DNA of 59,538 bases from a virus, in the IMG/VR virus record IMGVR_UViG_3300028888_000014, positions 1 through 59,538 of that record; one strand, given 5' to 3'. The notes under the pieces were generated by a model. The model did not search any database, had not been told where the DNA came from, and worked only from the letters and a program-made list of their open reading frames with translations. Position numbers and translations under genes: made by a program. Within the stretch, counting starts at the first letter, position 1. Each line of letters opens with the position of its first letter. Of this stretch, positions 13,936 to 44,161 are shown piece by piece.

Positions 13936-16900
13936 TCACAGTCGCGCCAGTTCCCTCACTTCCCGTTCCTGATCGTCGAACTCCAACTGTATCTTCCGGC
14001 TGATGTAGGCGCGGCGGTTGTTGGGGTCGCGCAGGTAGTCGTTCATCTGTCTGAGTTCCTTGAGCAGCTCGCCGTTGTCGTTCTGGTAGTAGTTGTTGGT
14101 GGTTGTCTGGTTTGACGGTGCAAAAGTACCGCTTCCCGCGCGAACGGCTTGGGACACGTTTTTCAGGTCGGGCTGCGGGATGGATATTCCGGCGAGGGCC
14201 TTGCGGTCGCCGCGCTGGTACTCGTCGAGGGCCGCGATGATGTCTGCGGTTTCGCGGTCCCGCAGCAGGCGGTTACTGGCCACCCATTCGTCGCCCTGCT
14301 CGCCCATCACAGCGTACTGCCTGCCGTGGATGTAGCCGCCCTTGTAGTACGGGTTGGGCTGGGAGGCGATGACTGCGAGTTGTGTTGCCTGTATCGCTGC
14401 CGCTATTGCGGATGCCGCGCTTTTGATAATGAGTCCGCCCGGCTCGTTGGCGAAGACGCTGGAGATGGTGAGCGCCAGGTTCACGGCCCCCTGTATGAGG
14501 TTCGCCGTGCGTTCCCGCTCGAAGGCGTCATGCTTCAGCTTCTTCTCCTTCTTCTCCTTCTCTTTCTGCATCCGCTCCATCTGCGCGTCATAGCGCTTCT
14601 GTGAGATGAGCCCGCTGTCGAGTTGCCGTTTCAGGACGGCCGATTTGGAATCATACATTTCCTCGTAGCGTTGCAGCTCCGCGTCCGCTTGGTTCTGCAT
14701 CACGCTGTCGATGGCCGACCACAGCTCGAACGCGTTGTCTGCGAATGTCCTGAGCCGGTCTGTCATCTTCGACAGGTTGTCCTCCCAGTTCTTGTCCCAC
14801 GCAGCCCAGTCTTCTTCTGTGATGCCGAACAGCGTCGCCCATGTGTCTTTGCCGAACGCCGTGTCGTATTTGGTCTGTATGTCGCTCTTCCGGCCTTTCA
14901 GAAACGCCAGTGTCTTCTCTATTTCCTTTAGTCGTTCGTCGTTCTCGCCCCCGTCGTTGTGCTCCTGCAGGTATTGTTGCGCGACCTCAAGTGTCAGGAT
15001 CTGGTCCTCGAGGGTCTTCATCGCCTCGCGGTACTGGCGTGTCACCGAGTCCGACATGGCGGTGACGATTTCGCGGGAGCGCTCGGCGGTCAGGGCCTGC
15101 ATCTCGGCGAGCTTCGCCTTGTCAAGCTCTTTTATCGCCTCGGTCACTTTGTCCAGTTTGCGCTGGTCCTCGTCGTCGAACTTGAGGCCGAGCAGTGTCA
15201 GCAGGTCTTGGGCGTTGCGCGGCTTCTGTTTCATCGCCTCTTCCCATTTCTCCCTTGTCAGTCCTATTTTCCCGAACAGCTCCGCGTTGTCTTCGAATGC
15301 CTGCTCAACCACATCCGTGTCGGACGACCAGTCGAACATGTTCCCTATTGTGAGTGAAGCGTCTTTCCTTTCGTTCAGCTTGTTCCGTTCCTCTTCCGCT
15401 TTCTGTCCCAGCTTGCCGAAGTCGTTTTCCATCTCCTTCATGTCCGTCTCCAGCTGCGTCTGGTATTTGCGCTGCTGCTTGAGGCGGAATTTGTTGAGCT
15501 TTTCTGTCACCGATGAGAGGTTGTCATCGATCTTCTTGAGCCTTTTCGCGCGTTCCTCGTCCTCGATCCGCGCTATCTCGTCCCACTTCTCCTGTTCCAG
15601 GCGTGCGCTTTCCGCTGCGGCTCTCTCTTCAAAGCCCTTGTATGTCTCGTTGAACGATTCCACTTCCTTGATGATGGCGTTGTAGGTGTTGATCACGGTT
15701 TCCTTGGCGGAGGATATGCCGAGGGATTCCGCCGAGGCTTTCTCGTTGAGCTTCGCGGTCTTCTTCATGAGGTCCGCCCAGCGTTCCTCCGGGGTCTTGC
15801 CGGATTCCTTGCCGCTGGTTACCGGGCTTGACGGGTCGTAGTCGTCGGTTTCGGCGTTGTAGCTTCCGCCGCCTCCATCATGTGATGCATTTCGGATCCT
15901 TGCTGTCACCATTGCTGCGGCATTGGTGAACATTTCAGCGACTTCCTCTCCCATTGTTGCGACATCATTCCCGAGAAGTTTTATTCCTTCGTTTTCCAAT
16001 TTTGTCAATGCAGCCTTTTGGGTTTTGTCGTCTGCTTGGTCTATCGTCTTCCCGTCAAATAGTTTGTCTATGATCATGTTGACTATTTCGCCTGTCATCT
16101 CGGATCTTTTTTTGTAAGCAAGGGCTTCTGCGGCCGCAGCTGAAGCGTTTGTCGCGGTTGGGGCGTAATCTTCAGTTCCGAATGCTTGGAAACCTGCCTT
16201 TTTCACGTTGAGCTTCCGGATGTTTTCGCTTGCCTTGATCATCTTGCTGGTTTCCGATTGGAATTCGCTCTCGTATTTTCTGAGTTCTTTGAGGTCTGCC
16301 GCGAGTTTTTCCGCTCCACTTTTCAGATTCACGCCGTATCGAGCCGCTTCTGTCTCTATCTTTTCGTTGAATTCCGAGAACTTCTCCCTGTATCTGTCCA
16401 TGCTTTCAGACAGGCTGACGAGAATGTTCAACTCTCCTTTCATTCCTTTGCCTGCCACGAATGTTTCGCGTGTTCCGAGAAGAGCGTTGATGTCTCTCGT
16501 GTATCCCATGCTGCTTAAAAGGGTTTTTATTTCCTCGTTTCCGCTGCCTGCTCTTAGCGCTTCGGCTATTTTTGATGCGTTTCGCGCGGCTTCGGCGCGG
16601 TCTTTTTCGTCAGGGTTTTTCACCCATTTGAGTAATATTTTTTCAAATCCGTTTTGGATTTCCGTAAGGTTCTGACCGAAGTGTTTCCCTTCGCCCATGT
16701 ATTCGTCGGTGAGTTTGTCTTTCGCTTTCTGGAACCCTTTTGCCGCTGCTTCGTCTTCTATCGCCTTGATCACCGCTCTGTGCGCCGCTTCGATGTTCCA
16801 AAGCTGGCCTTCTTCGTTGGTCAGGTTTGCAAGGTATTTTCCGTATTTCTCGTTGAGCGTCTTCATTATTTCCGCTCTCTGTTCCTCGGTGGTGTTAACA

Positions 16901-19236
16901 TTCTCCAATGCGTTGAAGAGTCTTTCCGCCCTGTCTTTCTCTTTCTCCATTTCCACTGCGGTTTCCTTGTGTATTCTTTCGAGTTCTCTGCTCTCTCTCA
17001 CAATCTTGATTATCAGCATTAGGACTTCAGCCGCGATTGTGGCGATGAGCATCCAGTGGTTTTTCAGCAGGGAGGTCAGAGTTGCTTTTTCTTTTAGACC
17101 GCCAATTTCATTTTCGAGACCGCTCATTTTCTTTTTGAGAATCTCTTCCCTTTGCATAAGGTTGACAATCTGATTTCTCACACCGGCCTCTATCTCTTTG
17201 GTTCGCAGGAGGTCTTTTTCCTGGACAGCGATGATTTCATTTATTTGAGCGATTTTTTCTTCTTTGGTCAGCGTGGTGCTGGCAAGTATGTTTTTCTGCG
17301 CTTCGAGACTTTTTTGCAGGGCTTTTTCTTTGGTGAGCTGTGCATTAGCCAGCAGTTGGCGTTGCTCTTCTGTCGCTATGGCGTTTTCAATTCTTGCTTT
17401 GTTCTGGAGCTCCCAGTTCATCTCCGCTTCGCTTGCTTTGCCCTGCATCTTCAACCCGAGGATTCTGTTCTCCGATTCCTGCAGGCTTTTCTTCAGCGTG
17501 TTTGTCCTTGCTGCGGACGCTGAGATTTCCTCTTCCAATGCAAGGGATGTGCGTTTGGAAATTTCTATCTGTTTGTTGAGAGCATATTCGGCCTTCAGTC
17601 TTGCATCGCTCCCTCTTGCTACCGCTTCTCTTTGCGCCTCAAGATCTTTGAGATTTTCTTGCATGGCAGCTTCCCTTTTCTTGGACCGTTCGACTTGCTC
17701 TTGCAGTTCGACACGTCGTCTTTCGACCATGGCGATTTCATCTTCTTTCTCCCTATATTGCTCTTGCGCCATCTTTATCTGGTTCTGTGCCACCTTCATC
17801 CCTTTGTACTCCTGCACAATTCCGATTTCATTAAAGCTGTTCTTCAGATTGTCCCAGTTCTTGCGCACTTTGTTGATGGCGAGCATTCCGGCTGCGCCGA
17901 TGGCCATCCATGCGTTCTCGGCGTGGTCCGTCACTCTGGACAGCCACTTGATGACCTTCCCGCCGAACATCGTGTATTTCACGATGTAGGGGTAGAGCTT
18001 CTCGCCGAGTTCCACGCGGGCATCGAACACGGTCTTCTTCGCCTTCTCCATTTGCGCCTGCAGGGTCTCGTTCATCACGGAGTACTCCTCGTTCATGGAG
18101 GTTCCTTCCTTTATGGCCTTGCTGGCGGTCTCCTGGGCGACCCTCACTTTGTCGATGTTGGTGGACAGGGCGAGGATCACCTGTGACGCTCTTGTTGCGT
18201 CAGCACCCAGGTCTTTGAATATGGGGACAATGGCCTGCACGTCGCCGATGTCGTGCAGCTTCTGCAGCACGGCGAGGAACGCCTGGTTGAAGTCCTTGGC
18301 CATGAGGTCCGACAGTTCTTTCTCGCCCATGCCGATCATCTCGGCGAAGCTGCCGGTCTTCTTTATCATCTGCTGCATGATCTTGGTGACGGCGGTGGCG
18401 GACATCTCAGGTGCCTTGCTGTTCTGCGACAGCACGCTGCCGAGACCGGCCATCTGGTCGAGGCTCATGCCGGCGATGGATGCGTAGGAGGCGATGCGCC
18501 CGAGGAACTTGGCGATCTGGCTCTCGTTGGCCGTGCTGGTCTTGCCCAGCTCGTTGATGACGGAGCCGGTGCGGATCAGCGTCTCCTCAAGTCCCGCGTT
18601 CCGGATTTCGCTGGTGGTGTCCTTGAAGACCTGCGCCAGCTTGGTGACCTCGATGATGGCGTCGGTGCCGCCGAGCACGTCTCCCAAGGCCACGTTGATG
18701 ACGTCCGCCGCTTTCACGAACTCCAGCACATCCTCCTTGCCGTTCACGCCCAGCTTGCCGGCGGCGTAGGCCAGCTCGTTGAGTTCCTCCCTCGATGTAC
18801 GGGTGTCTATCTTGGTGAACTCCCTGTTAAGGTCGGCCACCTCCTGCCGCGACAGCATGGTGGTCTTGCGCACCCTTCCCATGGCGTCGTCCAGTCCTGC
18901 CATGTCGGAGGCCAGGTCGCGCATCTTCTGCAGACCTCTACCGAGGAACTGTACGGTTTGCACGATGCCGGACAACACGGAGCCTATCATGCTGATCTGG
19001 TTAAGACGTTCCTTGTTCTTTTCCGTTGAACTTTTTATAAGTCTTTCCTCACGTTCCAAAGCGTCTTGCATCCTGGATATTTCCGCCGCCTTGGCGTAGT
19101 ATTCTTGTGTGCCTTTAGCCATCGCTTTCCACGCTGCCTTCTCTTTCTCCAATCTATTTGTCAGTTCGTCGATTGACTTTTTGGCATCCTTGTTGTTGAC
19201 GTATATGTTTACCGATCTTACTGCTCCTTTTGCCAT
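13936..19236 (-). CDS. Tail tape measure protein (1766 aa)
   Basis: Very long, Glu/Lys/Ala-rich with extensive coiled-coil-like sequence and hydrophobic central segments. It sits between candidate chaperone genes and tail-tip genes. Confidence 0.85.
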   Translation of the reverse strand: MAKGAVRSVNIYVNNKDAKKSIDELTNRLEKEKAAWKAMAKGTQEYYAKAAEISRMQDALEREERLIKSSTEKNKERLNQISMIGSVLSGIVQTVQFLGRGLQKMRDLASDMAGLDDAMGRVRKTTMLSRQEVADLNREFTKIDTRTSREELNELAYAAGKLGVNGKEDVLEFVKAADVINVALGDVLGGTDAIIEVTKLAQVFKDTTSEIRNAGLEETLIRTGSVINELGKTSTANESQIAKFLGRIASYASIAGMSLDQMAGLGSVLSQNSKAPEMSATAVTKIMQQMIKKTGSFAEMIGMGEKELSDLMAKDFNQAFLAVLQKLHDIGDVQAIVPIFKDLGADATRASQVILALSTNIDKVRVAQETASKAIKEGTSMNEEYSVMNETLQAQMEKAKKTVFDARVELGEKLYPYIVKYTMFGGKVIKWLSRVTDHAENAWMAIGAAGMLAINKVRKNWDNLKNSFNEIGIVQEYKGMKVAQNQIKMAQEQYREKEDEIAMVERRRVELQEQVERSKKREAAMQENLKDLEAQREAVARGSDARLKAEYALNKQIEISKRTSLALEEEISASAARTNTLKKSLQESENRILGLKMQGKASEAEMNWELQNKARIENAIATEEQRQLLANAQLTKEKALQKSLEAQKNILASTTLTKEEKIAQINEIIAVQEKDLLRTKEIEAGVRNQIVNLMQREEILKKKMSGLENEIGGLKEKATLTSLLKNHWMLIATIAAEVLMLIIKIVRESRELERIHKETAVEMEKEKDRAERLFNALENVNTTEEQRAEIMKTLNEKYGKYLANLTNEEGQLWNIEAAHRAVIKAIEDEAAAKGFQKAKDKLTDEYMGEGKHFGQNLTEIQNGFEKILLKWVKNPDEKDRAEAARNASKIAEALRAGSGNEEIKTLLSSMGYTRDINALLGTRETFVAGKGMKGELNILVSLSESMDRYREKFSEFNEKIETEAARYGVNLKSGAEKLAADLKELRKYESEFQSETSKMIKASENIRKLNVKKAGFQAFGTEDYAPTATNASAAAAEALAYKKRSEMTGEIVNMIIDKLFDGKTIDQADDKTQKAALTKLENEGIKLLGNDVATMGEEVAEMFTNAAAMVTARIRNASHDGGGGSYNAETDDYDPSSPVTSGKESGKTPEERWADLMKKTAKLNEKASAESLGISSAKETVINTYNAIIKEVESFNETYKGFEERAAAESARLEQEKWDEIARIEDEERAKRLKKIDDNLSSVTEKLNKFRLKQQRKYQTQLETDMKEMENDFGKLGQKAEEERNKLNERKDASLTIGNMFDWSSDTDVVEQAFEDNAELFGKIGLTREKWEEAMKQKPRNAQDLLTLLGLKFDDEDQRKLDKVTEAIKELDKAKLAEMQALTAERSREIVTAMSDSVTRQYREAMKTLEDQILTLEVAQQYLQEHNDGGENDERLKEIEKTLAFLKGRKSDIQTKYDTAFGKDTWATLFGITEEDWAAWDKNWEDNLSKMTDRLRTFADNAFELWSAIDSVMQNQADAELQRYEEMYDSKSAVLKRQLDSGLISQKRYDAQMERMQKEKEKKEKKLKHDAFERERTANLIQGAVNLALTISSVFANEPGGLIIKSAASAIAAAIQATQLAVIASQPNPYYKGGYIHGRQYAVMGEQGDEWVASNRLLRDRETADIIAALDEYQRGDRKALAGISIPQPDLKNVSQAVRAGSGTFAPSNQTTTNNYYQNDNGELLKELRQMNDYLRDPNNRRAYISRKIQLEFDDQEREVRELARL

Positions 19237-24551: not shown

Positions 24552-24559
24552 CAAAAATA
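24552..24559 (-). promoter_or_regulatory. -7 promoter box (TATTTTTG)
   Basis: The reverse complement of caaaaata matches TAnnTTTG, 24 nt upstream of the ATG at 24527. Confidence 0.5.
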
Positions 24560-24622
24560 CAAAATATTTCAATATACACACACTTTGCAAATATTTTTAT
24601 TTGCAAAGTGTGTGCATTGTTT

Positions 24623-25681
24623 TTAAAGCAAGGCGTCTATCATTTCCGCCTTGTAAAGTCTCGCCGGGGATAGTGGCGTGAGGAAGTCGAATCTGTCTAT
24701 CCATATTTCGGTTTTCGAAGGCATTCCGGGAGTGGGGTATTCGATAATTCTGATGTCAAGTATCCGGTACGGCCCGTGGAGCGCTAAAGAGATATCCATT
24801 GGTTCCCGATAGTAAGCCATATTCCCGATGTGCGCTTCCCATAAGCTGTGGTCGTATCTGCATCCGGCTGTTGTATAGGACAATCTTCTCCCTATTGCCG
24901 GCTCATAAAAATGGAAATACTTCTGTGCCGTGGTTCTTTCGTTGTCGTCAGGTCTTGTTATCTGTCCTTTATTGACGATGTTTATTCCGGTATTGAACGC
25001 CGCAACGAACCGTTCCAACGCGCTCTGTCCACTTTGCTTTTCTCCGTCCACTGGTACCCGTCCACTTTGCTTTTCTCCGTCCACCGGTACCCGTCCACTT
25101 TGCTTTTCCGCATCCACCGGCACCCGTCCACTTTGCTTTCCCGCCGCCACTGTCGTCAGTCCACTTTGCTTTTTTCCGTCCACTTGCACCCGTCCACTTT
25201 CGCTTTTCAATGTCTTTGTTTTTTCCATTTTTTTTGCTTTTTTGTCTGTATTTGTCATTCCTATCACAGCGATGTCGCATTTTTTCCCGAGTGCTTTCAT
25301 TGCCGCCTCTGCTGTCATTCCCGTGTCATATACGTTGTCGATGAGCACGAAATTTCCCCGTATTTCATGTCTGTATTTTTTTCGGAACACTGGTTCTTTT
25401 GGACGCTTTCCCGCCTTTTTCATTTCGCACAGTCCGTCACGCACTTCGCCTCTAAGGCAGTTTTCGACTTTGAATCCTCCTTTTTGCGCTATCCTTATTG
25501 TAAGCATCAATGTATATGCAGCATATCCGAACCTTCCCGGTATCGGTATTAGTGTGCTTCCTTCAGGTATCATTGTCGAGAGTGCTCTTGCCGCTTTTTC
25601 TATGGATTCGACGTCTCCTTCCTTTACTTTGCGGCACATTTTTCTGTATGTTCTGTATTCTCCCATGGTGATGATTTTCAT
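24623..25681 (-). CDS. ComF-like / type I phosphoribosyltransferase-domain protein with internal 11-aa repeats (352 aa)
   Basis: LIPIPGR ... NFVLIDNVYDTGMTAEAA resembles the PRPP-binding loop of the PRTase/ComF family. The middle has (SGRVPVDGEKQ)n and the C-terminal 120 aa are unknown. Confidence 0.55.
   Translation of the reverse strand: MKIITMGEYRTYRKMCRKVKEGDVESIEKAARALSTMIPEGSTLIPIPGRFGYAAYTLMLTIRIAQKGGFKVENCLRGEVRDGLCEMKKAGKRPKEPVFRKKYRHEIRGNFVLIDNVYDTGMTAEAAMKALGKKCDIAVIGMTNTDKKAKKMEKTKTLKSESGRVQVDGKKQSGLTTVAAGKQSGRVPVDAEKQSGRVPVDGEKQSGRVPVDGEKQSGQSALERFVAAFNTGINIVNKGQITRPDDNERTTAQKYFHFYEPAIGRRLSYTTAGCRYDHSLWEAHIGNMAYYREPMDISLALHGPYRILDIRIIEYPTPGMPSKTEIWIDRFDFLTPLSPARLYKAEMIDALL
25028..25205. 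repeat. 33-bp tandem repeat, about 5.4 copies, in frame within the PRTase-like CDS
   Basis: Units begin at 25028, 25061, 25094, 25127, 25160 and 25193 (tccactttgcttttctccgtccacyggtacccg). Confidence 0.85.
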
Positions 25682-25699: not shown

Positions 25700-26134
25700 T
25701 CAAATCAATCCCTCTTCTGCGAACGAATAGTATTTGTCTTCAGTCACTATTATGTGATCCACCAGGTTTATTGAGAAGATTTCCAATGCGGCTTTAACTT
25801 TCTCTGTTATAAGTTTGTCGTTTTTGCTTGGTTTTGTTGAACCGCTCGGATGGTTGTGTATGAGTATTACCTGTGTAGCCAGTGTATCCAGCGCGGCTTT
25901 GCAAACCAGTCTTGCGTCCACGGGTGTGTCCGCCACCCCTCCCTGCGATATCTTCATCCACCCTATGATCATTCCTGCGTTGTTTATCATTATCATGAAG
26001 CAAGATTCGTATAAGTTTATGTCTTCATGATAGAACTCCATGGCGTAGTTGTATGCGTCCACTGAACTCTTCACATACGCTTCTTTGAAGCATTCCGTTT
26101 TTTTAGCTTTTATTTCGTATTTGTATGATTCCAT
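25700..26134 (-). CDS. RadC-like JAB/MPN domain protein (144 aa)
   Basis: VILIHNHPSGSTKPSKNDKLITEKV contains the HNHPSG JAMM-type signature of the RadC family. Confidence 0.85.
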   Translation of the reverse strand: MESYKYEIKAKKTECFKEAYVKSSVDAYNYAMEFYHEDINLYESCFMIMINNAGMIIGWMKISQGGVADTPVDARLVCKAALDTLATQVILIHNHPSGSTKPSKNDKLITEKVKAALEIFSINLVDHIIVTEDKYYSFAEEGLI

Positions 26135-26218: not shown

Positions 26219-27100
26219 TTAAATCAGGTAGTTGTCCAGGAATTTGTTCATTGCTATGTTCTGCGGCAGGACGTTTGGTATTTCCATTTTGTCCGCTTTG
26301 TACAGTTCTGTCGCGGTGTTGTATATGTCCCACAGCGTCACTGTTCCCTGTTGTTTCTGTTTTATCAATAGCGCTTCCGTGAATGTGCTGATTTGCGTCT
26401 GGTTGAACGGATATGTGTCCTTCATCCGGATTTCCGGGTTCGAGCTGTCATGTGCCACCCTCATGGCTGTCAGTTCCCCGATTATCTGAAGCACTTGTTC
26501 CGGTCTCATGACTGTTTCTCTCATTCTTCGGATGTATTCCTGTTCCTCTCCGATGATTTTCCCGCTTTCCGCCATCCATCTTTCAACTTCTTCGCTTATT
26601 TGGTTCATGTCCCGTTTGTTCCTTCCGTAGTTCGACACCATTCTGTCTGCCCCGAGGATGCACTGGTTGTGGCAGACTTTCACCATGGTCCCGTAAGCCA
26701 CCTGTATTCCGTCCTGATGGAACGCCACGGCCATGTTGGATGTGAACTCTTCCGTGTCATAGTCGAGTATTCTGATGTTGGCGTACACTCTTCTGAGCAC
26801 ATGTGCTTCCACCGCTTTGTACCCGTATCTTTTTTCCACCTCCGGCAGCAGGACCACTCCCGGTTGCGATTTGTCTCTGTTCTGTGCCGCGAAGATCTCC
26901 TCTATTTTCATCTTCAGCCCGTGTCTTTCCGCGATGTCCCTGCACATCTCTATCACTTGCCAATGGTACATTCCTTTGAGCGGGTGTCCCATGATGTCGT
27001 TTTCCTCGTGTGTCCTCTTGAGTTGTTCAAGAGTCAGTGTCTGCACTTTCGCTTTTTCGAAGTCCAGGAATTCTGTGTTTAAGTTTGTTATTTGTTCCAT
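26219..27100 (-). CDS. DUF932-like protein (293 aa)
   Basis: AFHQDGIQVAYGTMVKVCHNQCILG resembles the NS.DGS...G..R.VC.NG core of DUF932. It is adjacent to a RadC-like gene, as in integrative elements. Confidence 0.55.
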   Translation of the reverse strand: MEQITNLNTEFLDFEKAKVQTLTLEQLKRTHEENDIMGHPLKGMYHWQVIEMCRDIAERHGLKMKIEEIFAAQNRDKSQPGVVLLPEVEKRYGYKAVEAHVLRRVYANIRILDYDTEEFTSNMAVAFHQDGIQVAYGTMVKVCHNQCILGADRMVSNYGRNKRDMNQISEEVERWMAESGKIIGEEQEYIRRMRETVMRPEQVLQIIGELTAMRVAHDSSNPEIRMKDTYPFNQTQISTFTEALLIKQKQQGTVTLWDIYNTATELYKADKMEIPNVLPQNIAMNKFLDNYLI

Positions 27101-27130: not shown

Positions 27131-27955
27131 TTATGCACGCATTCTTTCTTCATTCATTCTTTCGTTCTCTTCAATCCGTTTTTTCAGTCCTTCTTTCACG
27201 AACTCGTTGATTTTTTCGGTGAGCCCTGGCATCAGAATTGTGATGTCGCACGTCTCTTTGAAGCTTTTCATTTTCATTATCCCTTTCCATTCCTGAATTT
27301 TCCCTGCTTCCGGATATTTCACCTCTTCTATCATTTCCTCTATCGCTGGGATGTCCGCCCCTGATGTGTATTGCGCAATCCCCAGTATGGTTTCCGCCAC
27401 CGATACTTGGGCTGTCGCGTCTCCGTGGATTTTCTGTTTGCTTTTGAATTCGAACGTCCTTAACCTTTCTGTATCCTCTATCCAGCTTCTGTCTTTGTTC
27501 ATCCTCCAGCTTATTCTTGTCGCGCATTCCACCACGGCGGCTCTTTTTGTCAGCGCTATCACGTAGCACATTTCGTCTATTTCACCTCCTGTCGCATTTT
27601 TCCCGCTGAATTGGTTCCTTATGCTTGCCGTCCATCTCTCCGCTCCGTAGTTTCTTTTGTCCCAGAACTTCCCCGCTGCTATCTGGCATACCTTTTCCAA
27701 TACGCATTCGTCTGTGTCTTCCCTCATTTCTTCCGGTGTTCTCATTCCTCGATAGCTGTTGTTTCCGTACCAATCCTGGATTTTCGGGTCGATTTTCCTC
27801 ATGTTCTCGTTCAGTTCTTTCATTCTGTCGTACATTTCGTCGTACGATTTTATTGTGGTCTCCCTCAGTTCTGCCAGGCGGACTATTTTTTCCGTCTTTT
27901 TGTTTCCGAACACTTTCGGAGCCCATTCTTTGAATTTTTCCATGAATTTTTCCAT
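27131..27955 (-). CDS. Hypothetical protein (274 aa)
   Basis: ATG start, ordinary composition, within the accessory operon. Confidence 0.55.
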   Translation of the reverse strand: MEKFMEKFKEWAPKVFGNKKTEKIVRLAELRETTIKSYDEMYDRMKELNENMRKIDPKIQDWYGNNSYRGMRTPEEMREDTDECVLEKVCQIAAGKFWDKRNYGAERWTASIRNQFSGKNATGGEIDEMCYVIALTKRAAVVECATRISWRMNKDRSWIEDTERLRTFEFKSKQKIHGDATAQVSVAETILGIAQYTSGADIPAIEEMIEEVKYPEAGKIQEWKGIMKMKSFKETCDITILMPGLTEKINEFVKEGLKKRIEENERMNEERMRA

Positions 27956-27973: not shown

Positions 27974-28144
27974 TTATCTTTTGTGAAATCCGACTTTCTT
28001 TTCTTCCTTTTCGAGTGATTTGTAGAATCTTGCCAGTGATTCTTTGAGTTCTTTCCACTCTTCGTGTCTGATCAGCTCTCTTTTCTCGTGTCTCACGGCT
28101 ATCACTGTCGCCGCGTTTATCACGCTGTTTGTCGATGCGTTCAT
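27974..28144 (-). CDS. Hypothetical small protein (56 aa from ATG 28144)
   Basis: The track start at 28171 is TTG and overlaps a hairpin; the first ATG is at 28144. Confidence 0.35.
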   Translation of the reverse strand: MNASTNSVINAATVIAVRHEKRELIRHEEWKELKESLARFYKSLEKEEKKVGFHKR

Positions 28145-28169
28145 ATCCTTTTTTTTAAATCGATAAAAC

Positions 28170-28199
28170 AAAGGGGAAAGGATTTCTCCCTCCCCCTTT
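28170..28199 (-). terminator. Possible intra-operon hairpin/terminator
   Basis: Stem aaagggg/cccc-ttt with an inner gga/tcc pairing, downstream of the stop at 28207. The T run is only moderate. Confidence 0.35.
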
Positions 28200-28206
28200 C
28201 TGTTTG

Positions 28207-28710
28207 CTATCTGAGGATTTCATCTTCGAGGCTCTTGAGTTTGCTTTCAATCTTGGTATCCAGCCACTCGCAGAACTCCTTCAGGATTTCCCTGTTGGAG
28301 ATGTTGAACATGTCCTTGAACTCGGCGTTGTACCCTACCGAGGCAAGTTTCCTCAGCGTCAGCTTGCAGAAGTCCACCTCGAAGTCCTTGGATTTCTCCA
28401 GCTTCGATTTGAGTTCCTTCAGTTCCTCCCTTGTGTTAAGGAGTACCTGTCGTTTCTTCGAGGCTTCTTCCCTTTCCTTGCCCTCTTCGATGATTTTCTT
28501 GATCATCCGTTCGCGTTCCGCCGGGTCTTGCATTAAGTTTGCCGGCTTCGTCGCTGGTACTATCTCCGTGCCCTTTGAGTCTGCCGCGGCTCCTGCGATG
28601 GCCTCTGCAATCTGCTCTTTCGTCTTTGCGAGGTCTTTCGAATCAAGCACCACAGCGGTTGTTTCGATGGTGTTGTTCTGGTTCTTGCTGGTTTCGTTGT
28701 TTTTCTTCAT
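28207..28710 (-). CDS. Hypothetical coiled-coil-rich protein (167 aa), first gene of the leftward accessory operon
   Basis: ATG start, E/K-rich sequence, preceded by a conserved 25-bp leader motif. Confidence 0.55.
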   Translation of the reverse strand: MKKNNETSKNQNNTIETTAVVLDSKDLAKTKEQIAEAIAGAAADSKGTEIVPATKPANLMQDPAERERMIKKIIEEGKEREEASKKRQVLLNTREELKELKSKLEKSKDFEVDFCKLTLRKLASVGYNAEFKDMFNISNREILKEFCEWLDTKIESKLKSLEDEILR

Positions 28711-29122
28711 TTTGATTGTTGCCTGTGTTATCCTCTTGGCTCGTGAGTTTTTTTGTTGGATTTTTTTTGTTTGGCTTTTCAGTTTGCCGCGCCCGAAATC
28801 CTTCGCGGGCGGCTGGCGCGTGCGCCTGCCCGCTGCTGTTGTCGTCCGCCCTGTGGCGGTGCTTTGGTCTTCCCGATACTGGCGGCCTCGCGGTTCCCGC
28901 CCTGCCTCCGTGCCGCACTTCTCGCGGTGGCTTCTTTGTTGCTTCGATGCGGTTTCAGTCTTTCAATGAACGGACCCGAAAAAATTCGGGTTGGGTCGCG
29001 GCGGGGTCCTGGTACACTCTTTTTGTTTTGTCCTTTTCTGCTTCTTTAGTTGTCCGGTGCGTTTCCCGCTTTCGCCGTTGTCGCGGGGTGTCGGTGCTGT
29101 GCCTCAACCCTTTAACAATGCA

Positions 29123-29130
29123 CAAATATA
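29123..29130 (-). promoter_or_regulatory. -7 promoter box (TATATTTG) of the leftward early promoter
   Basis: The reverse complement of caaatata matches TAnnTTTG. Operator O1 lies 11 nt upstream. Confidence 0.5.
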
Positions 29131-29141
29131 CAAAAATTATT

Positions 29142-29161
29142 GATACTGTCAACACACAATC
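29142..29161. promoter_or_regulatory. Operator O1: 20-bp dyad GATacTGTcaacACAcaATC
   Basis: Fits GAT-N2-TGT-N4-ACA-N2-ATC; one of three copies. Confidence 0.65.
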
Positions 29162-29186
29162 AAAAATATTTTTATCTTTTTCAGTC

Positions 29187-29206
29187 GATAATGTCAATAC
29201 ATAATC
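29187..29206. promoter_or_regulatory. Operator O2: 20-bp dyad GATaaTGTcaatACAtaATC
   Basis: Same dyad pattern, 10 nt upstream of the -7 box at 29217 and 45 bp centre-to-centre from O1. Confidence 0.65.
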
Positions 29207-29216
29207 AAAAAAGTCT

Positions 29217-29224
29217 TATCTTTG
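29217..29224 (+). promoter_or_regulatory. -7 promoter box (TATCTTTG) for the RHH gene
   Basis: Matches TAnnTTTG, 19 nt upstream of the ATG at 29244. Confidence 0.55.
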
Positions 29225-29243
29225 CCGCCTCAAACAAACAGCA

Positions 29244-29465
29244 ATGGACGAAAAAAAAGTTTCCGAGAAAAAAGCCTCCCGCGGCGGTCGCCGCGAAAAC
29301 GCGGGGCGCAAAGCCCCCGACGGGAAAAAGGCCGTGAATCTGAACATCCGCACAACTCCCGATTTTCGCGTAAAATTGAAAGATTTGGCGCAAAATGAAA
29401 AAATGAGCGTATCGGATTTCTTGCGGTTTCTCGTCACTGACTACGAGAGGCGGAAAAATTCTTGA
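29244..29465 (+). CDS. Ribbon-helix-helix DNA-binding protein (73 aa), candidate switch regulator
   Basis: Basic N-terminal tail (SRGGRRENAGRK), then VNLNIRTTPDFRVKLKDLAQNEKMSVSDFLRFLV, which fits a strand-helix-helix RHH fold. Operators flank it. Confidence 0.6.
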   Translation: MDEKKVSEKKASRGGRRENAGRKAPDGKKAVNLNIRTTPDFRVKLKDLAQNEKMSVSDFLRFLVTDYERRKNS

Positions 29466-29469
29466 TTGG

Positions 29470-29510
29470 AGCGGGCGCGGCTGTGATGGCTTCGCCCGCT
29501 TTTGTTTTTT
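29470..29510 (+). terminator. Rho-independent terminator after the RHH gene
   Basis: 8-bp stem agcgggcg/cgcccgct followed by tttgtttttt. Confidence 0.65.
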
Positions 29511-29562
29511 CTGCTTTTTCGTGATTGTTAGTTTATGGATTTGCAACTCCTTTAAAGTCAAT

Positions 29563-29592
29563 AAAAAAAGCTCGGCGCGGTTAACGCGCCGA
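29563..29592 (-). terminator. Orphan minus-strand rho-independent terminator
   Basis: Stem tcggcgcg/cgcgccga, with an A run on the + strand, which is a T run on the - strand. No annotated - strand CDS ends here. Confidence 0.55.
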
Positions 29593-29728
29593 TACTTTAT
29601 GTATAAAGTCGCCCGCCTCACGCCCTACCCCGTGAGGCGCGCGCCCGCACCCCCGAACACGCAAATATGAGAGGCTGCACAGCGTCACACAGCAGCCGCC
29701 ACAGTGACTGACACAACGAGCCGCGCCC

Positions 29729-29891
29729 CGATGGCGACCAGCACCACGGCGGCAGGGCTGGACGGATGGCGACCAGCACCACGGCGGCAGGGCTGGACGG
29801 ATGGCGACCAGCACCACGGCGGCAGGGCTGGACGGACGGCGACAAGCACCACGGCGGCACGGCTGGACAGACGGCGACCACCGCCACGGCA
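29729..29891. repeat. 35-bp GC-rich tandem repeat, about 4.6 copies, non-coding
   Basis: Units start at 29729, 29764, 29799, 29834 and 29869 (gatggcgaccagcaccacggcggcagggctggacg). The period is not a multiple of 3. Confidence 0.9.
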
Positions 29892-29954
29892 GATAAATAT
29901 AATTTCCTTATATTCAGTATGTTATAAAAACAATTGTTTGTATAATGCTGATAT

Positions 29955-30091
29955 TCAATTTGTTATAAGCTATAAAAAACCGCGTTCGATTTTTGCAAGA
30001 AAAACCCGATTTTGCGCGACTCGTTGATTATCAGTGAATTATAATTTATTGATAATCAATTTGTTATACTAAAAAATACGGATTTTTGCAG
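29955..30091. repeat. AT-rich region with two imperfect direct repeats of about 40 bp (tcaatttgttata ... gatttttgca)
   Basis: Copies at 29955-29995 and 30056-30091, about 100 bp apart, read directly from the sequence. Confidence 0.7.
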
Positions 30092-30194
30092 ATATGACAC
30101 CCACGGAAACGGCACACGATATTTTTTTTGTTTATTATGTTGTAACTAATTGAAACACAGATAAATAAAAACAATAAAAAGATAAAAATAATTT

Positions 30195-30214
30195 TGATTA
30201 TGTGTTGACAATAT
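30195..30214. promoter_or_regulatory. Operator O3: 20-bp dyad GATtaTGTgttgACAatATC
   Basis: Same dyad pattern as O1 and O2, 11 nt upstream of the -7 box at 30226. Confidence 0.65.
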
Positions 30215-30225
30215 CAAATAAAATA

Positions 30226-30233
30226 CTATCTTT
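30226..30233 (+). promoter_or_regulatory. -7 promoter box (TATCTTTG) of the rightward early operon
   Basis: Matches TAnnTTTG, upstream of CDS 30364-30927. Confidence 0.55.
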
Positions 30234-30363
30234 GTAGTGGGTTGATACAACGACAGCCCGCCCGCGTTCCTTGACATATTGACAGAGCGACACCAATTTT
30301 TTTTCAACATATCAAATTTTCCTTTAAAAGTCTTGGGGGTGTGTGGATAACCCCCGCAATAGT

Positions 30364-30927
30364 ATGACTTACACAGAATCAGTTAACAGAGCACGCAGAA
30401 GTAACACGGACAACCGCCTCGCAAACTTGCAGGCCGTGACCAACGCCGCCCGCCGCGCACACAAAAACGTGAGCGCGAATGAGGCCATCGCCCTTTATTG
30501 CGGCGTAAATTTCCGAAATCTTCGGAGTTATAGACAATGTGTTGACGAAATCGGCCTAACGCCCGAACAGATTCACACGCTCCCCACAATTGACATTTGG
30601 GGGGCAAACAGCCCCGAATGGTGCGAACGGACGGGCGCGGCGCGGTTTTTCCCGAAAGCGGCTTTCGACTGCACGAACTTTCTAAAAGTTGACAACCACG
30701 ACCCTGCCGCCGACATTCCCGCCGAACCGATGGACAACACCGCCACCGCGCCAACGTCCGACCTGCTGAGCAGGTCGCAGGAAGCGGAGGACATCGCCGA
30801 CAGTTTTTTTGACGGCGAAACGCCCGCCACGGCGGAAACGCCCAAGGCGGCAAAGAAGCGCGGCGGGCGCGGCAAGAAATCAGCCGCCCCCGTGGAGGTC
30901 GCCACGGTTGACGACCTGCCGTTTTAA
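30364..30927 (+). CDS. Hypothetical early protein (187 aa from ATG 30364; the track start at 30343 is GTG)
   Basis: First ORF after the promoter at 30226. The C-terminus is basic (KAAKKRGGRGKK); no motif recognised. Confidence 0.5.
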   Translation: MTYTESVNRARRSNTDNRLANLQAVTNAARRAHKNVSANEAIALYCGVNFRNLRSYRQCVDEIGLTPEQIHTLPTIDIWGANSPEWCERTGAARFFPKAAFDCTNFLKVDNHDPAADIPAEPMDNTATAPTSDLLSRSQEAEDIADSFFDGETPATAETPKAAKKRGGRGKKSAAPVEVATVDDLPF

Positions 30928-31069
30928 ACCGTTGCGGTGGTTGGGATTCCCCGACCACCGCAACCAGCCCACCTGCCGGACGGCCCGCCAGGGCCTTGAC
31001 CGGCAGGTACAAACCAAAATCCTTTTCAAAAAAAAAGATCCGCGCAGCGGACCGCAACGATAAATTTAT

Positions 31070-31077
31070 TATCTTTG
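31070..31077 (+). promoter_or_regulatory. -7 promoter box (TATCTTTG)
   Basis: Matches TAnnTTTG, 66 nt upstream of the ATG at 31144. Confidence 0.45.
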
Positions 31078-31103
31078 CAAAACAAAACAAACGAATAATA
31101 ATT

Positions 31104-31162
31104 AAACTGACGGGCCGACAGGATAAAACAGGCGACAGACATTATGACAAACAACAGCGACA
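31104..31162 (+). repeat. Copy A of the duplicated leader plus start region (aaactgacgGgccgacaggataaa...cattATGacaaacaacagcgaca)
   Basis: About 57-59 bp, near-identical to 31436-31492; spans the 5-prime UTR and the first 6 codons (MTNNSD). Confidence 0.85.
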
Positions 31163-31419
31163 GCAAAAAAAATCTGAAAACTTTCAGCGAAAAAGCGAGA
31201 GAGTTTTACAACAAACTCAACCAGTTTGTTTCCGAGAACGGCGACACCAGTTATTGCGATCTCCTATTCTCGAATCATGACGGGAAAGGTGATGCTGCAG
31301 CCGCAGCGGAACTGATGCAGTTGAAATACGAAATCAATGGAATAGCCAAGGGCTGCGAGATGTTGATCAAAAACGTTGATTTAGCCTTGGAAGTTTACGA
31401 CGAAAGCGAAGCATTATAA
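31144..31419 (+). CDS. Hypothetical small protein (91 aa), starts MTNNSD
   Basis: ATG start, ordinary composition. Confidence 0.55.
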   Translation: MTNNSDSKKNLKTFSEKAREFYNKLNQFVSENGDTSYCDLLFSNHDGKGDAAAAAELMQLKYEINGIAKGCEMLIKNVDLALEVYDESEAL

Positions 31420-31435
31420 GACATCAATCACATAA

Positions 31436-31492
31436 AAACTGACGAGCCGACAGGATAAACTGGCAAGAACATTATGACAAACAACAGCGACA
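31436..31492 (+). repeat. Copy B of the duplicated leader plus start region
   Basis: Near-identical to 31104-31162. Confidence 0.85.
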
Positions 31493-31890
31493 ACAGAATC
31501 GTGGTGGCATTCCACATCGGCCGCGGAGGCCAATTCTACAACCCTGGTCACAAGACCTACAAGGGCGAAATCAATTTCACGCAGCTGTGCAATTCACAGA
31601 ATCAGTACCTAAATGTAGTAAACCGCGACAGCAACGGGCGGTTCTGCCGTCCGTACCTCTCCGATGACGGTGGAAGCGTGGTCGTCACTCCGGAGGACTA
31701 CGGCAAGGAAGTCGGCACCATCGACTATGACGGAACCTACGACATGTGGGTTTGCAAGTACATAGAAGACTGCGACAATGAAGAACTAATGATGATCTAT
31801 CAAGCTGGGGAAACCAGGACAGAAGCATTCGATTTCGCGAAGAACAAACTTAGCGAAGATGGGATGAGCAACGATGCGCAAATAAGTTAA
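31474..31890 (+). CDS. Hypothetical protein (138 aa), starts MTNNSD
   Basis: ATG start, ordinary composition. Confidence 0.55.
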   Translation: MTNNSDNRIVVAFHIGRGGQFYNPGHKTYKGEINFTQLCNSQNQYLNVVNRDSNGRFCRPYLSDDGGSVVVTPEDYGKEVGTIDYDGTYDMWVCKYIEDCDNEELMMIYQAGETRTEAFDFAKNKLSEDGMSNDAQIS

Positions 31891-31936
31891 AGCAAATAAC
31901 ATCCAAAAAAATATATTACACTTAAAAATCAAGATT

Positions 31937-32233
31937 ATGAAAAAAATTTATGTCATTATCACGGACAAAAAAGAATTTGAAATTTATCTAAAAAGAGATA
32001 ACGCGAACAAAAATCGCGACGAGAAAAGAAACGCAGGAATAAAATGCGACGTGTATATAGTATCAGTTTATGAGGACGAAATATATGTCCCAATGAAACG
32101 TAATAATAGATGGATTATCTATAATAGGCCGAAACATGAAGTAATGTTCGACGGATTTGGTTATGAATTCTGCAATAAACTTAGCAAGGTACTCAACGAT
32201 ATATCTCACCATCGTATCGATGTCGACGAGTAG
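31937..32233 (+). CDS. Hypothetical protein (98 aa), AT-rich
   Basis: ATG start, K/N/Y-rich low-GC gene. Confidence 0.5.
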   Translation: MKKIYVIITDKKEFEIYLKRDNANKNRDEKRNAGIKCDVYIVSVYEDEIYVPMKRNNRWIIYNRPKHEVMFDGFGYEFCNKLSKVLNDISHHRIDVDE

Positions 32234-32240
32234 AAATAAA

Positions 32241-32636
32241 ATGAAACGCTATAAAATCACCATCATTTTCAAGGACGGCACGCGGTCGGAGAACCGCGTG
32301 ACCGCCCGGAACCAGAAGGATGCCGTCGCGCGGCTGATGAACAACGACCAGTTCCGCGCCTTCAGCGACGGCAAGGCGGTGGACAGCATCGGCGTGAAGC
32401 CCATCCCCATCGAGCCCGTGGACGATACCAGGTTCACCGTCCGCACCATCCGCAACAAGAGCGGATGGTACATCGTCGAAGACTCCGTGACCGGAATCCG
32501 GGTAGAGTGGAAGAGGGGGATGTACAACGAGACCAACCGGCCTTTGCTGACCGAAGATCTGACGGCCCTTGAAAAAGCTACCGCACTCCGTGAGATCGGC
32601 GAGTACCTCTACAGCAACTTCCGGGAACTCCTTTGA
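32241..32636 (+). CDS. Hypothetical protein (131 aa from ATG 32241)
   Basis: The upstream part of the track ORF overlaps the previous gene. MKRYKITIIFKDG is a plausible start. Confidence 0.5.
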   Translation: MKRYKITIIFKDGTRSENRVTARNQKDAVARLMNNDQFRAFSDGKAVDSIGVKPIPIEPVDDTRFTVRTIRNKSGWYIVEDSVTGIRVEWKRGMYNETNRPLLTEDLTALEKATALREIGEYLYSNFRELL

Positions 32637-32661
32637 GTTTGGAAGGAAATTTGATATGTGG

Positions 32662-32695
32662 AAGGGCGTGCCGAACGGCGCGCCCTTTTGGTTTT
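32662..32695. terminator. Terminator hairpin between convergent operons
   Basis: Stem aagggcg/cgccctt followed by ttttggtttt, lying between the stop at 32636 (+) and the terL stop at 32695 (-). Confidence 0.55.
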
Positions 32696-40213: not shown

Positions 40214-41398
40214 TTAGAGACCCATCGACTCGCTGATCTGCTTGTAGTAGGGGTCGTTGTCAACGTACGCGGCGAAGGTGTCCTCGGGGTTCTCCTCGGG
40301 GTCCTTCCCGTTGGTCTGGGTGGCGGCTGCCGGCATGGCTTCGTATTTCTCCTTGAAGTCGTCGCGCTCGGCGGTGAGGGTTTCGATGGCGGTTTTGTCC
40401 TGTTCCGCCTTTTCCTGTGCGGCTTTGAGTTCGTCGGTCTTCTTCTGCAGCTCGGCTCTCACGCTCTCGAGGTCCGCCTTGGCCTGCTTGCCGGCCTTCA
40501 GCTCCTCTTCCAGCTTGCCGAGCTCGTCGGGGCTGAGGGTGAGCCCCTTGGTCTCGTCGAACTCCTTCTCTGCGCCGTAGGCCAGTGCGGCGGCCAGCAG
40601 CGCGAATGTGGTGATGATTTTTTTCATCTCGGTGTGGGTTTGATTAGTGATAGGTGGATTATTTTCGGAACCATTGTCGTCATGGTTGTCCGTTTTCGTG
40701 TTGACTGTCGCCCCGAGTGTCATCCGGGCGTGGTTGAGGAACGAGGCCATCAGCCCTGAGCTCATGCCCTTCGCGGATGCCTCTTCCGGATCCGCCCACA
40801 TCTCGGTGGCGAACCCGTAGTTCACGGCCTCCTCGGCGGTGATCCACTTGCCGTTTCCGTTTGCGGCCTCCATCAGGTCGTCGAGTTCGGAGTTCTTGCC
40901 CTTGAACACCCTGCGGTAGATCTTCATCATCTGCCCGTTGACCTTCTGCTGGAAGTCAAGGTATTCCTTCAGCTCGTTCTCGTTGCCGACGCATCTTCCC
41001 CAGCACTTGTGGATAAGGTAGAGGCTGGTCGGGGAGATCTTGCGCACGCTTCCCGCGCAGGCTATGACCGTGGCCGCGGAGGCGCACAGTCCCGTCACGA
41101 TGGTCGTGACCCTGCATTTTGCCGCTTTCTCGGCGAGCGCGTCGTAGATCTGCAGTGCCGCGTCCACGTCCCCGCCGAGGGAGCTGATCAGCACTTCCAC
41201 TTCGGTCGCATCGCCGACGGCGTCCAGTGCCTCGCGGATCTGCTTGCCGGTATTCACCGGTTCCCAGGTGTCCCAGTCCCAGCCGCCGATGTCGCCGTCT
41301 ATGTTGATGCGCACCACGCCGTTCTCTGGCTCGGCCACGCTCATCGTGAGTTTGCCGGCCTGGACTGTGGCCATGATGCGTCTTTTATTGATATCCAT
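40214..41398 (-). CDS. ClpP/S14-like prohead protease fused to a coiled-coil scaffold-like C-terminal domain (394 aa)
   Basis: LISSLGGDVDAALQIYDAL ... TGLCASAATVIACAG matches the ClpP-family active-site region. The C-terminal 137 aa are coiled-coil and begin at an in-frame ATG (40627). Confidence 0.8.
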   Translation of the reverse strand: MDINKRRIMATVQAGKLTMSVAEPENGVVRINIDGDIGGWDWDTWEPVNTGKQIREALDAVGDATEVEVLISSLGGDVDAALQIYDALAEKAAKCRVTTIVTGLCASAATVIACAGSVRKISPTSLYLIHKCWGRCVGNENELKEYLDFQQKVNGQMMKIYRRVFKGKNSELDDLMEAANGNGKWITAEEAVNYGFATEMWADPEEASAKGMSSGLMASFLNHARMTLGATVNTKTDNHDDNGSENNPPITNQTHTEMKKIITTFALLAAALAYGAEKEFDETKGLTLSPDELGKLEEELKAGKQAKADLESVRAELQKKTDELKAAQEKAEQDKTAIETLTAERDDFKEKYEAMPAAATQTNGKDPEENPEDTFAAYVDNDPYYKQISESMGL

Positions 41399-43273: not shown

Positions 43274-44161
43274 TCATCCGTCCGTGGTTGTCTCCTGCGT
43301 GTTGTCGTGCGGACCGCGGACCTGTGCGCGATTCTCGTTGGGTTGTTGATGCTTCCCGAAGACGAGCCAGTCCTCGAGTTTCGACCCGACAACGTTATGT
43401 ATCTCTATGGCGCGTGATTTGTTGATTTCATGCACCTTTGCGATCAGTTTGTCTATCTCTTCCACCTTACTTGCCGGTATGATGTCTTCCGGGTGTTTGT
43501 GGAAGTCCTCAAGCGACGGGGCGTTCAGGTACTCGCCCGCGCAGGAGTTCTCCAGCATTTCGCGATACTCTATCCACAGTTTCAACGCGCGGGGGTCCAT
43601 CCGGCTGTTGTCCAGCCAGTAAGCTATGTCGAAGACACTCCCCTCCTCCATCAGGTGTATTGCCGGATTCCTGTCGGTCGGGAACCCGGGTCGCGTGCTG
43701 ACGGCAAACGACACCGTTGCCCTGCTGTAGTCCTCCATCTGGCATGTTATTGCACTGTCGGCTAATAAGTTGTTGAATGTATTGACCAGCTCGTCGAATT
43801 CGTTGTGCAGTCCGAATGTCGCTGTTTTGGATTCGCGGTGGGTCTTCTTCTCTGTCTCTTCCCGCATTGCTGTCACGAATTCTTCTCTGATTGTCGCGAA
43901 GACCTCCCGCGACTCCTTTATGTAATTTCTTATCGCGGCGTTCCCGGCGTTTATCACGAGTTTCGCGGTCTCCGCCAATGCGTCTCCCGCGTGTGTCATG
44001 ATTCTTTCCAGTTTGTCGGATTCCGTGCATGTGTATGCCGCAAACATTTTGACTGTTGGCAGTCTGTGCAGCGGCATGTCGTGGAACATCATCTCCTGTT
44101 TCACTATTCTGTCCAGATCTCCTGAGTCGGGCAATTCCACGCCCTTTGTTTTGTATGTCAT
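43274..44161 (-). CDS. Hypothetical protein (295 aa)
   Basis: ATG start, ordinary composition; last gene of the replication operon. Confidence 0.55.
   Translation of the reverse strand: MTYKTKGVELPDSGDLDRIVKQEMMFHDMPLHRLPTVKMFAAYTCTESDKLERIMTHAGDALAETAKLVINAGNAAIRNYIKESREVFATIREEFVTAMREETEKKTHRESKTATFGLHNEFDELVNTFNNLLADSAITCQMEDYSRATVSFAVSTRPGFPTDRNPAIHLMEEGSVFDIAYWLDNSRMDPRALKLWIEYREMLENSCAGEYLNAPSLEDFHKHPEDIIPASKVEEIDKLIAKVHEINKSRAIEIHNVVGSKLEDWLVFGKHQQPNENRAQVRGPHDNTQETTTDG

Follow-up and report, generated by a model that had tools for sequence, protein, structure and literature searches.

Between positions 29,123 and 30,234 of a virus record of 59,538 nucleotides (IMGVR_UViG_3300028888_000014; its full length is called the window here), the gene for a 73-aa protein with a predicted ribbon-helix-helix (RHH) fold is surrounded by three 20-bp dyad-symmetric sites, each next to a promoter box. 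The question raised by this locus is what the small protein controls through these sites, and whether they make up a genetic switch, as an earlier sequence-only reading had proposed. We consider it probable, at roughly 70%, that a single autoregulated RHH repressor silences two divergent operons, the leftward PL and the rightward PR, via the three operators O1, O2 and O3. The circuit is a negative-feedback shut-off or silencer and not a demonstrated bistable switch, because one self-repressing regulator is evident and no antagonist, second regulator or positive feedback was found in the family scans of the PL and PR products. As far as we know, and as far as the literature library that we searched shows, gene regulation in Bacteroidales phages is almost unexplored and there is no description of an RHH repressor/operator system in them.

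The pattern GATNNTGTNNNNACANNATC has exactly three matches in the window, at 29142-29161 (O1, GATACTGTCAACACACAATC), 29187-29206 (O2, GATAATGTCAATACATAATC) and 30196-30215 (O3, GATTATGTGTTGACAATATC). The sequence-only reading had located O1 and O2 exactly and had placed O3 1 nt too far to the left. In dinucleotide shuffles 0.01 matches to GATNNTGTNNNNACANNATC are expected and none of 100 shuffles reached three, so the pattern is not one that occurs frequently at random positions. This shuffle test is not independent, because the pattern was derived from the same three sites. Independent support comes from related phages, in which both the sites and the spacing between operator and promoter box are conserved. 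The position of O1 is kept in all related loci, with a core that is specific to the type of the phage. Allowing two mismatches added two further sites only, at 30533-30552 and 43564-43583, with 1.8 expected by chance. One of them (GACAATGTGTTGACGAAATC, 30533-30552, inside the first PR gene) was considered as a fourth operator and rejected as a chance-level match that is not conserved in the type-1 relatives described below; it is identical to O3 at 16 of 20 positions, the asymmetric core included.

Three boxes matching TAnnTTTG accompany the operators. The PL box, TATATTTG, is found at 29123-29130 on the minus strand with a predicted transcription start near 29118. The box of the RHH promoter, TATCTTTG, lies at 29217-29224 on the plus strand, with a predicted start near 29229 and a 15-nt leader. 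The PR box, also TATCTTTG, is at 30227-30234 on the plus strand, with a predicted start near 30239; it had previously been given as 30226-30233. The gaps between operator and box are 11 nt for O1, 10 nt for O2 and 11 nt for O3, as had been reported before. TAnnTTTG is enriched across the window in general (39 observed and 18.4 expected). The -7 element of Bacteroidota promoters is numbered from T-12 to G-5 (PMC6847099), and by this numbering O1 covers positions -43 to -24 of PL, O3 the same positions of PR, and O2 positions -42 to -23 of the RHH promoter. The dyads are therefore centred at -33 or -33.5, so that the proposal that each operator covers the -33 region of one of three promoters holds. 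The promoter boxes are themselves well conserved: across 15 lineages the CAAATATA columns of the PL box are near-invariant (1 of 15 rows deviates by one base) and the TAT.TTT core of the RHH box is invariant, followed by GCCGCC in 14 of the 15. A possible rightward promoter after O1 (TATCTTTT, 29173-29180) is not conserved and was discarded.

The RHH gene is found at 29244-29465 on the plus strand. Its product consists of a basic N-terminal arm (residues 1-29), which is predicted to be disordered and is nearly invariant across relatives, followed by a ribbon at about residues 31-38 (variable stretch 30-37), helix A (39-51) and helix B (56-72). In the AlphaFold2 (AF2) monomer model both helices are modelled with a predicted local distance difference test (pLDDT) score of about 92 and follow a stretch of alternating polar and hydrophobic residues. 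This ribbon, V31-N-L-N-I-R-T-T38 and then P-D-F, stands directly before helix A. The strand region is unstructured in the AF2 monomer, which is expected since the strand forms only in the dimer. The turn before helix B is K53-M-S55, where wider relatives have G-I/M/L-S/T. Almost all top Foldseek matches are RHH proteins (among others CopA antitoxin, ORF56, ParG, CopG, Arc, AmrZ and NikA), many of them antitoxins, with E-values that are not significant for so small a domain (each E > 0.5). Family models gave 23.7 bits for NikA-like and 16.1 bits for RHH_10, each with a cut-off of 27, and the NCBIfam matches to MobA and ORF56 were far below their cut-offs; RHH families are the only ones among the matches. 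A PDB sequence search with the RHH profile returned no RHH match. Judged by the model and these matches, the 73-aa protein is assigned to the RHH (MetJ/Arc/CopG) superfamily. A library-wide profile search recovered 4 clusters at E <= 1e-10 and 248 at E <= 1e-3, and in the members sampled from it the arm motif GG[KR]R-x-GAGRK precedes an RHH domain.

The gene is monocistronic, with its own promoter and its own terminator, and the next feature is on the opposite strand. The intrinsic terminator (29468-29512, plus strand; -23.1 kcal/mol, z = -3.3) starts 3 nt past the stop codon with a hairpin that is followed by UUUUGUUUUUU, and it is conserved in relatives. No toxin, relaxase or ParA gene lies beside the RHH gene, and there was no relaxase-family match among the scanned neighbouring genes, which are a subset of the open reading frames (ORFs) of the window.

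The evidence that ties the protein to the operators comes from about 25 related loci, which are mostly short metagenomic contigs. The mean pairwise identity of the protein is 31% in the ribbon residues 30-37, compared to 74% elsewhere. Five ribbon types pair with five operator cores of 8-10 bp each. Type 1, with the ribbon AVNLNIRT and close variants, goes with the core TGTCAAYACA (the window, L001-5, L019-23 and L028-30), and type 2, with SERLFLCV, goes with ATTGCGCAAT (L006-8). The other pairs are, in order, TKHLNVVV with TATGCGCATA (L010, L011, L014-16 and L026), TSHISWRV with TGTAGCTACA, in which the flanks are 1 bp nearer on each side (L012 and L013), and MVNFQLCG with ATACAACTAT (L018). 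The GAT/ATC flanks, the -7 boxes, the spacing and the surrounding sequence are constant across the ribbon types. In type-2 phages O3 likewise has the type-2 core at the same position, 11 nt from TATCTTTG.

Two pairs of loci are particularly informative. L010 has the same background as L012, and L014 and L019 have a second one in common. Within each pair, about 410 nt are essentially the same in both loci, and the differences are confined to three patches, at the O1 core, in the O2 region and in the ribbon cassette. On this comparison we read the two pairs as two separate coordinated swaps. Grafting whole 8-residue ribbons transfers the specificity of RHH proteins, and ribbon positions 2, 4 and 6 contact the bases (PMC3413123). 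An arginine at contact position 6 (R36) is found only in the types with TGT...ACA cores. Because the ribbon covaries with the operator cores, the RHH protein is strongly supported as the putative ligand of O1-O3, which is the role that had been proposed for it in the sequence-only reading.

The orientation of the operators adds to the picture of the three promoters. The type-1 core is incompletely palindromic (GTCAAYAC), and in every type-1 relative O3 is inverted with respect to O1 and O2. When PL is read on the minus strand it can be aligned with PR, and the two are mirror copies of a single cassette, AATAnTTTTGATT-core-GTATCAA-N9-TATnTTTGT. In this PL/PR orientation the TTG of the type-1 core falls at -34 to -32, and its TTGACA stands 16 nt from TATATT or TATCTT, which gives 11 of 12 and 10 of 12 matches to the sigma-70 consensus. 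O2 has the same absolute orientation as O1 and is therefore inverted relative to its own promoter when compared with O1 at PL and O3 at PR, so that it lacks this TTG. In most relatives O2 is, in addition, more degenerate than O1 and O3: it is a hybrid of ATTGC and GCATA in types 2 and 3, and in type 4 a single half is intact. This degeneracy fits an autoregulated promoter that would be weaker and less tightly repressed than the two strong, tightly repressed promoters PL and PR. Cooperative binding at O1 and O2 by helical phasing was also considered; relatives differ in the distance between the two centres (about 36 to 46 bp), and phased cooperative binding is therefore unlikely.

For the mechanism we propose that the two-stranded beta-ribbon would read the central 8-10 bp of each 20-bp operator and that the invariant basic N-terminal arms would reach the invariant GAT/ATC about 9 bp off on each side. 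One dimer, centred on the dyad with its ribbon in the central major groove, would fill one operator. The one-dimer model is favoured because a full replacement of the ribbon alters only the central 8-10 bp and because the cores are palindromic or nearly so. Since the operators are centred at -33, a repressor bound to such a host-sigma (TAnnTTTG) promoter would exclude RNA polymerase, and the protein would thus act by repression rather than activation. When phage DNA enters a repressor-free cell all three promoters would fire. The RHH protein would then accumulate, turn off PL and PR and steady its own level. In a lysogen both operons would be kept silent, and an incoming phage of the same ribbon type would also be repressed.

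The diversity of the ribbons suggests the hypothesis of selection against cross-repression by related resident prophages. A more far-reaching proposal, which we put forward tentatively and hold to be rather less probable than its opposite, joins these points. At least five orthogonal repressor/operator pairs might exist, between which a ribbon cassette of about 45-60 nt would be exchanged together with all operator cores. The driver might be escape from repression by prophages of the same family, that is, an RHH-based second immunity over entry-phase genes. A single dimer might read the 20 bp in two layers, the ribbon taking the core and the GG[KR]R-x-GAGRK arms taking GAT/ATC. We know of no description of such a two-layer reading of one 20-bp site, by ribbon and arm, for RHH proteins.

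The PL transcription unit is predicted to extend from 29118 to 24623 on the minus strand and to begin with an untranslated leader of about 400 nt (28711-29118). It contains genes for a conserved 167-aa protein (28207-28710), a 274-aa protein (27131-27955), a DUF932 protein (26219-27100), RadC (25700-26134) and a 352-aa protein (24623-25681), all on the minus strand. The leader is GC- and purine-rich on the minus strand and has no ORF, and in relatives 500-530 nt lie between the RHH gene and the first called gene on the opposite strand. In L021, which has an identical RHH protein, the PL leader loses its similarity some 20 nt downstream of the predicted start. The PL cargo is exchanged between relatives, which have PcfJ, PcfK or DUF7659 there. 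RadC, DUF932, PcfJ and PcfK accompany incoming mobile DNA. Such a variable cargo is in keeping with the proposed circuit of the Reg576 kind, which is compared below. Where the PL cargo meets the tail genes, a perfect hairpin of 17 bp (CACACACTTTGCAAATA...TATTTGCAAAGTGTGTG, 24577-24614) stands beside a leftward TATTTTTG box (24552-24559), and the two may mark a tail-gene promoter or a regulatory site.

The PR operon (30364-32636, plus strand) consists of five small orphan genes, g1 to g5, at 30364-30927, 31144-31419, 31474-31890, 31937-32233 and 32241-32636. It ends at a hairpin with a T-run near 32655-32695, found by eye and shared with the convergent head genes. None of the five genes has a family match in Pfam, PHROGs or NCBIfam. 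In relatives g1, g3 and g5 are conserved, and the first genes of both PL and PR are conserved in all lineages. The g1 protein (30364-30927) is an orphan confined to this phage group, with a conserved N-terminal domain, a variable low-complexity linker and an invariant C-terminus, DDLPF. The model predicted for its structure has little confidence (pLDDT 53), and no meaningful fold match came out of it. Bacterial SSB proteins have DDLPF as their C-terminal motif (PMC5531588), and on this likeness the g1 protein may mimic the SSB tip and recruit host DNA-metabolism proteins. PADLOC detected no defence-system proteins in PL or PR, and among the products of both operons Pfam, PHROGs, NCBIfam and PADLOC showed no antirepressor (Ant, KilA or Bro) and no second regulator.

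The region between the RHH gene and O3 has a number of features of its own. A candidate small RNA of about 95 nt (29563-29669, minus strand) is convergent with the RHH gene and does not overlap it. Its -7 box, CATATTTG (29669 to 29662), is close to the consensus, and it contains three hairpins together with an intrinsic terminator made up of TCGGCGCG-ttaac-CGCGCCGA and a T-run. The candidate is conserved across all lineages (11 distinct sequences), with compensatory changes at three base pairs, its fold energy is -46.3 kcal/mol (z = -3.6), and it has no Rfam match; an Rfam scan of 28000-31000 gave sub-threshold chance matches only. It is followed by a GC-rich tandem array at 29730-29890, with 4.6 copies of a 35-bp unit at 94% identity. 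Relatives have tandem arrays in the equivalent place with other units and periods, and these may be iterons or another protein-binding array. The AT-rich block at 29890-30190 contains three copies of the 21-nt motif YTGATATTCAnTTTGTTATAA (29907, 29948 and 30049) and a fourth, weaker one (30125), as well as a 36-bp palindrome (30024-30059). The tandem array together with the AT-rich block looks like a replication origin, as far as its repeats and composition suggest.

The window belongs to a temperate tailed phage, which encodes a tyrosine integrase (79-1200), a tape-measure protein (13936-19236) and a prohead protease (40214-41398), and the RHH module is positioned between the head-gene and tail-gene blocks. 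A CI-like helix-turn-helix (HTH) protein (Pfam: PF07022) is encoded at 58480-58869. There is no RHH-type operator at this CI/Cro-like region, in agreement with the proposal that the two regions are separate. A protein with a DUF5906 domain (46380-49235) is, we presume, possibly a primase-helicase. The window also encodes a C-5 cytosine DNA methylase (55302-56867; Pfam: PF00145, E = 7e-29) and a 208-aa protein (52634-53260) with a faint match, below the cut-off, to extracytoplasmic function (ECF) sigma factors (E = 0.0095). Genome and metagenome scans added only close relatives. The sole host label that they provided is a contig from an uncultured Bacteroidales metagenome-assembled genome, which carries an identical RHH gene. 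DNA and protein searches of deposited phage genomes detected no relative of the region and no genome encoding the RHH protein, and only distant relatives of the prohead protease were found among them.

Several points weigh against the circuit as we propose it. L017 (666 bp) differs from L019 in nothing but its ribbon, a sixth type (TFFCWRIS), and its operators are still those of type 1. It is either the product of mis-phased metagenomic assembly or a genuine recombinant with a mismatched repressor and operators. The variant cassettes in general could be mis-phased in short metagenomic contigs, and O3 is checkable in types 1 and 2 only, as the contigs of the other types stop short of it. One dimer per operator is what we infer from the cores; operators of this length are often occupied by two RHH dimers, as with Arc and Reg576, and an Arc-like pair is a possible alternative here. 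Tail genes follow downstream of PL on the same strand, so PL may also feed late transcription, which would be a misfit with a simple early burst. The 'establishment' role that we ascribe to the PL and PR genes is proposed by analogy.

If the locus were a true bistable switch, the RHH protein would be opposed by an antagonist encoded in PL, in PR or by the convergent small RNA candidate, and the phage would have a second decision point. The divergent promoters with shared operators, the conserved small RNA candidate adjoining the RHH gene and the conservation of the first PL and PR genes in all lineages would all suit this explanation, and P22 has a second immunity region that is run by RHH proteins. 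We nevertheless regard it as unlikely, since the window has a single family of operators, the scans of the PL and PR products described above found neither a second DNA-binding protein nor an antirepressor domain, and negative autoregulation by itself gives homeostasis and not bistability. A copy control similar to that of CopG or ORF56, in which an origin lies between the RHH gene and O3 and the RHH protein limits g1 as an origin-binding or recruiting protein, seems improbable as well. In its favour are the tandem array followed by the AT-rich block with its 21-nt motif and palindrome, relatives that have the same layout with different repeat units, the weak NCBIfam match to the ORF56 copy-control protein, and the invariant DDLPF of g1 that follows a disordered linker and equals the SSB C-terminal motif (PMC5531588). 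Against it, the DUF5906 protein is located elsewhere (46380-49235), the N-terminal domain of g1 has no detectable fold match, and the presence of the same operator on the variable PL cargo operon would be left unexplained. Copy control is compatible with silencing of PL and PR by the RHH repressor, and both could coexist.

The remaining two explanations, in which the RHH protein is not primarily a repressor at O1-O3, are disfavoured by the covariation and by the isolated position of the gene. The dyads might be promoter elements, or might be bound by a different protein of the phage or host (the CI-like repressor, for instance), with the RHH protein acting elsewhere. The type-1 TTGACA, with 16 nt to TATATT or TATCTT, is close to the sigma-70 consensus and has its TTG at about -33, and the flanking ATCAAA lies within the AT-rich -18/-28 zone described for Bacteroidota promoters (PMC6847099). 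Near-identical phages, however, have wholly different cores but the same -7 boxes, and within this region the differences between cores track the RHH ribbon alone; O2 is inverted relative to its promoter, and the CI-like region has no RHH-type operator, which together make this explanation very unlikely. We give the least credence to the RHH protein being a relaxosome accessory protein (NikA- or MobA-like), a partition protein (ParG- or omega-like) or an antitoxin, for which the overlap with promoters would be secondary. Its best Pfam and NCBIfam matches are NikA-like and MobA, many of its fold matches are antitoxins, and it resembles the Foldseek match ParG (76 aa) in having a small RHH domain with an N-terminal tail, which in ParG is disordered. 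All of these family matches are, however, under the curated cut-offs, and the gene is isolated between promoter and terminator with no relaxase, ParA or toxin gene adjoining. Furthermore, the element is an integrating tailed phage, which speaks against a relaxosome, and it has only three single dyads, each locked to a promoter, and no repeat array of the kind expected for partition.

An autoregulated RHH repressor of PL and PR would make this locus a testable regulon of one 73-aa protein, three sites and three host-type promoters. The mechanism of the regulator is itself familiar, and the added interest is the unusually clear natural series of ribbons and operators. Five matched ribbon/operator pairs on one scaffold are material for an RHH recognition code. 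The same series could provide orthogonal repressible promoters for Bacteroides engineering, with the operator already located at -33 of a native promoter.

Among known systems, Reg576 of the Bacillus pumilus plasmid p576 is an RHH autorepressor of four establishment-gene promoters, which are expressed transiently after DNA entry (PMC6294495). As in the phage, the same operator is found at several promoters, Reg576's own promoter is the weaker one and one of its targets has a long structured untranslated leader, which is comparable to PL (PMC6294495). Reg576 acts on genes that are required immediately after DNA entry, among them the anti-restriction gene ardC; in their place the phage has DUF932, RadC and orphan genes, none of them a proven anti-restriction gene. 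The logic of de-repression on entry until the repressor accumulates is what we propose here by analogy (PMC6294495). Reg576 thus seems to be the best functional precedent for a phage RHH circuit, and if the circuit controls entry-phase accessory genes, the plasmid logic of 'de-repress on entry, then shut off' would extend to phages. There are also clear differences. The operators of Reg576 are TTATCCC direct repeats bound by two dimers, whereas those of the phage are 20-bp dyads with a variable core (PMC6294495). The two proteins have no detectable sequence similarity (no RHH match in the PDB sequence search), Reg576 belongs to a Firmicutes plasmid and not to a temperate Bacteroidales phage, and the ribbon/operator polymorphism seen here has not been described for it.

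The Arc/Mnt system of the P22 immI region is another comparable case, with small phage RHH repressors at overlapping or divergent promoters in a region apart from the CI/Cro-type region. Arc is a self-repressor that ends an early burst, and the same logic is proposed here. We take the ribbon contact pattern N-x-R of the phage protein to resemble N11 and R13 of Arc. In contrast to the phage, P22 has two RHH proteins instead of one and its immI controls an antirepressor gene, of which no counterpart was found in the PL and PR products (Pfam, PHROGs, NCBIfam, PADLOC). The Arc operator has two subsites for two dimers, whereas the conserved N-terminal arm and the GAT/ATC flanks suggest another use of the 20 bp here.

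The exchange of ribbons has a laboratory counterpart. Zampini and Hayes (2012) built ParG chimeras in which the 8-residue ribbon was exchanged on a constant helical scaffold and the protein was retargeted to a different core box (PMC3413123). Those chimeras were made in the laboratory, whereas the exchange seen here is natural. It has taken place five times or more, and up to three operators in a genome have changed to match. Omega of pSM19035 and CopG of pMV158 are likewise small RHH repressors, acting on several promoters or on their own operon via repeats that overlap the promoters. Omega has a disordered N-terminal tail and binds arrays of 7-bp heptads cooperatively, and CopG is co-transcribed with the rep operon that it controls. 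The phage protein differs from both in being monocistronic and in its putative binding to single dyads.

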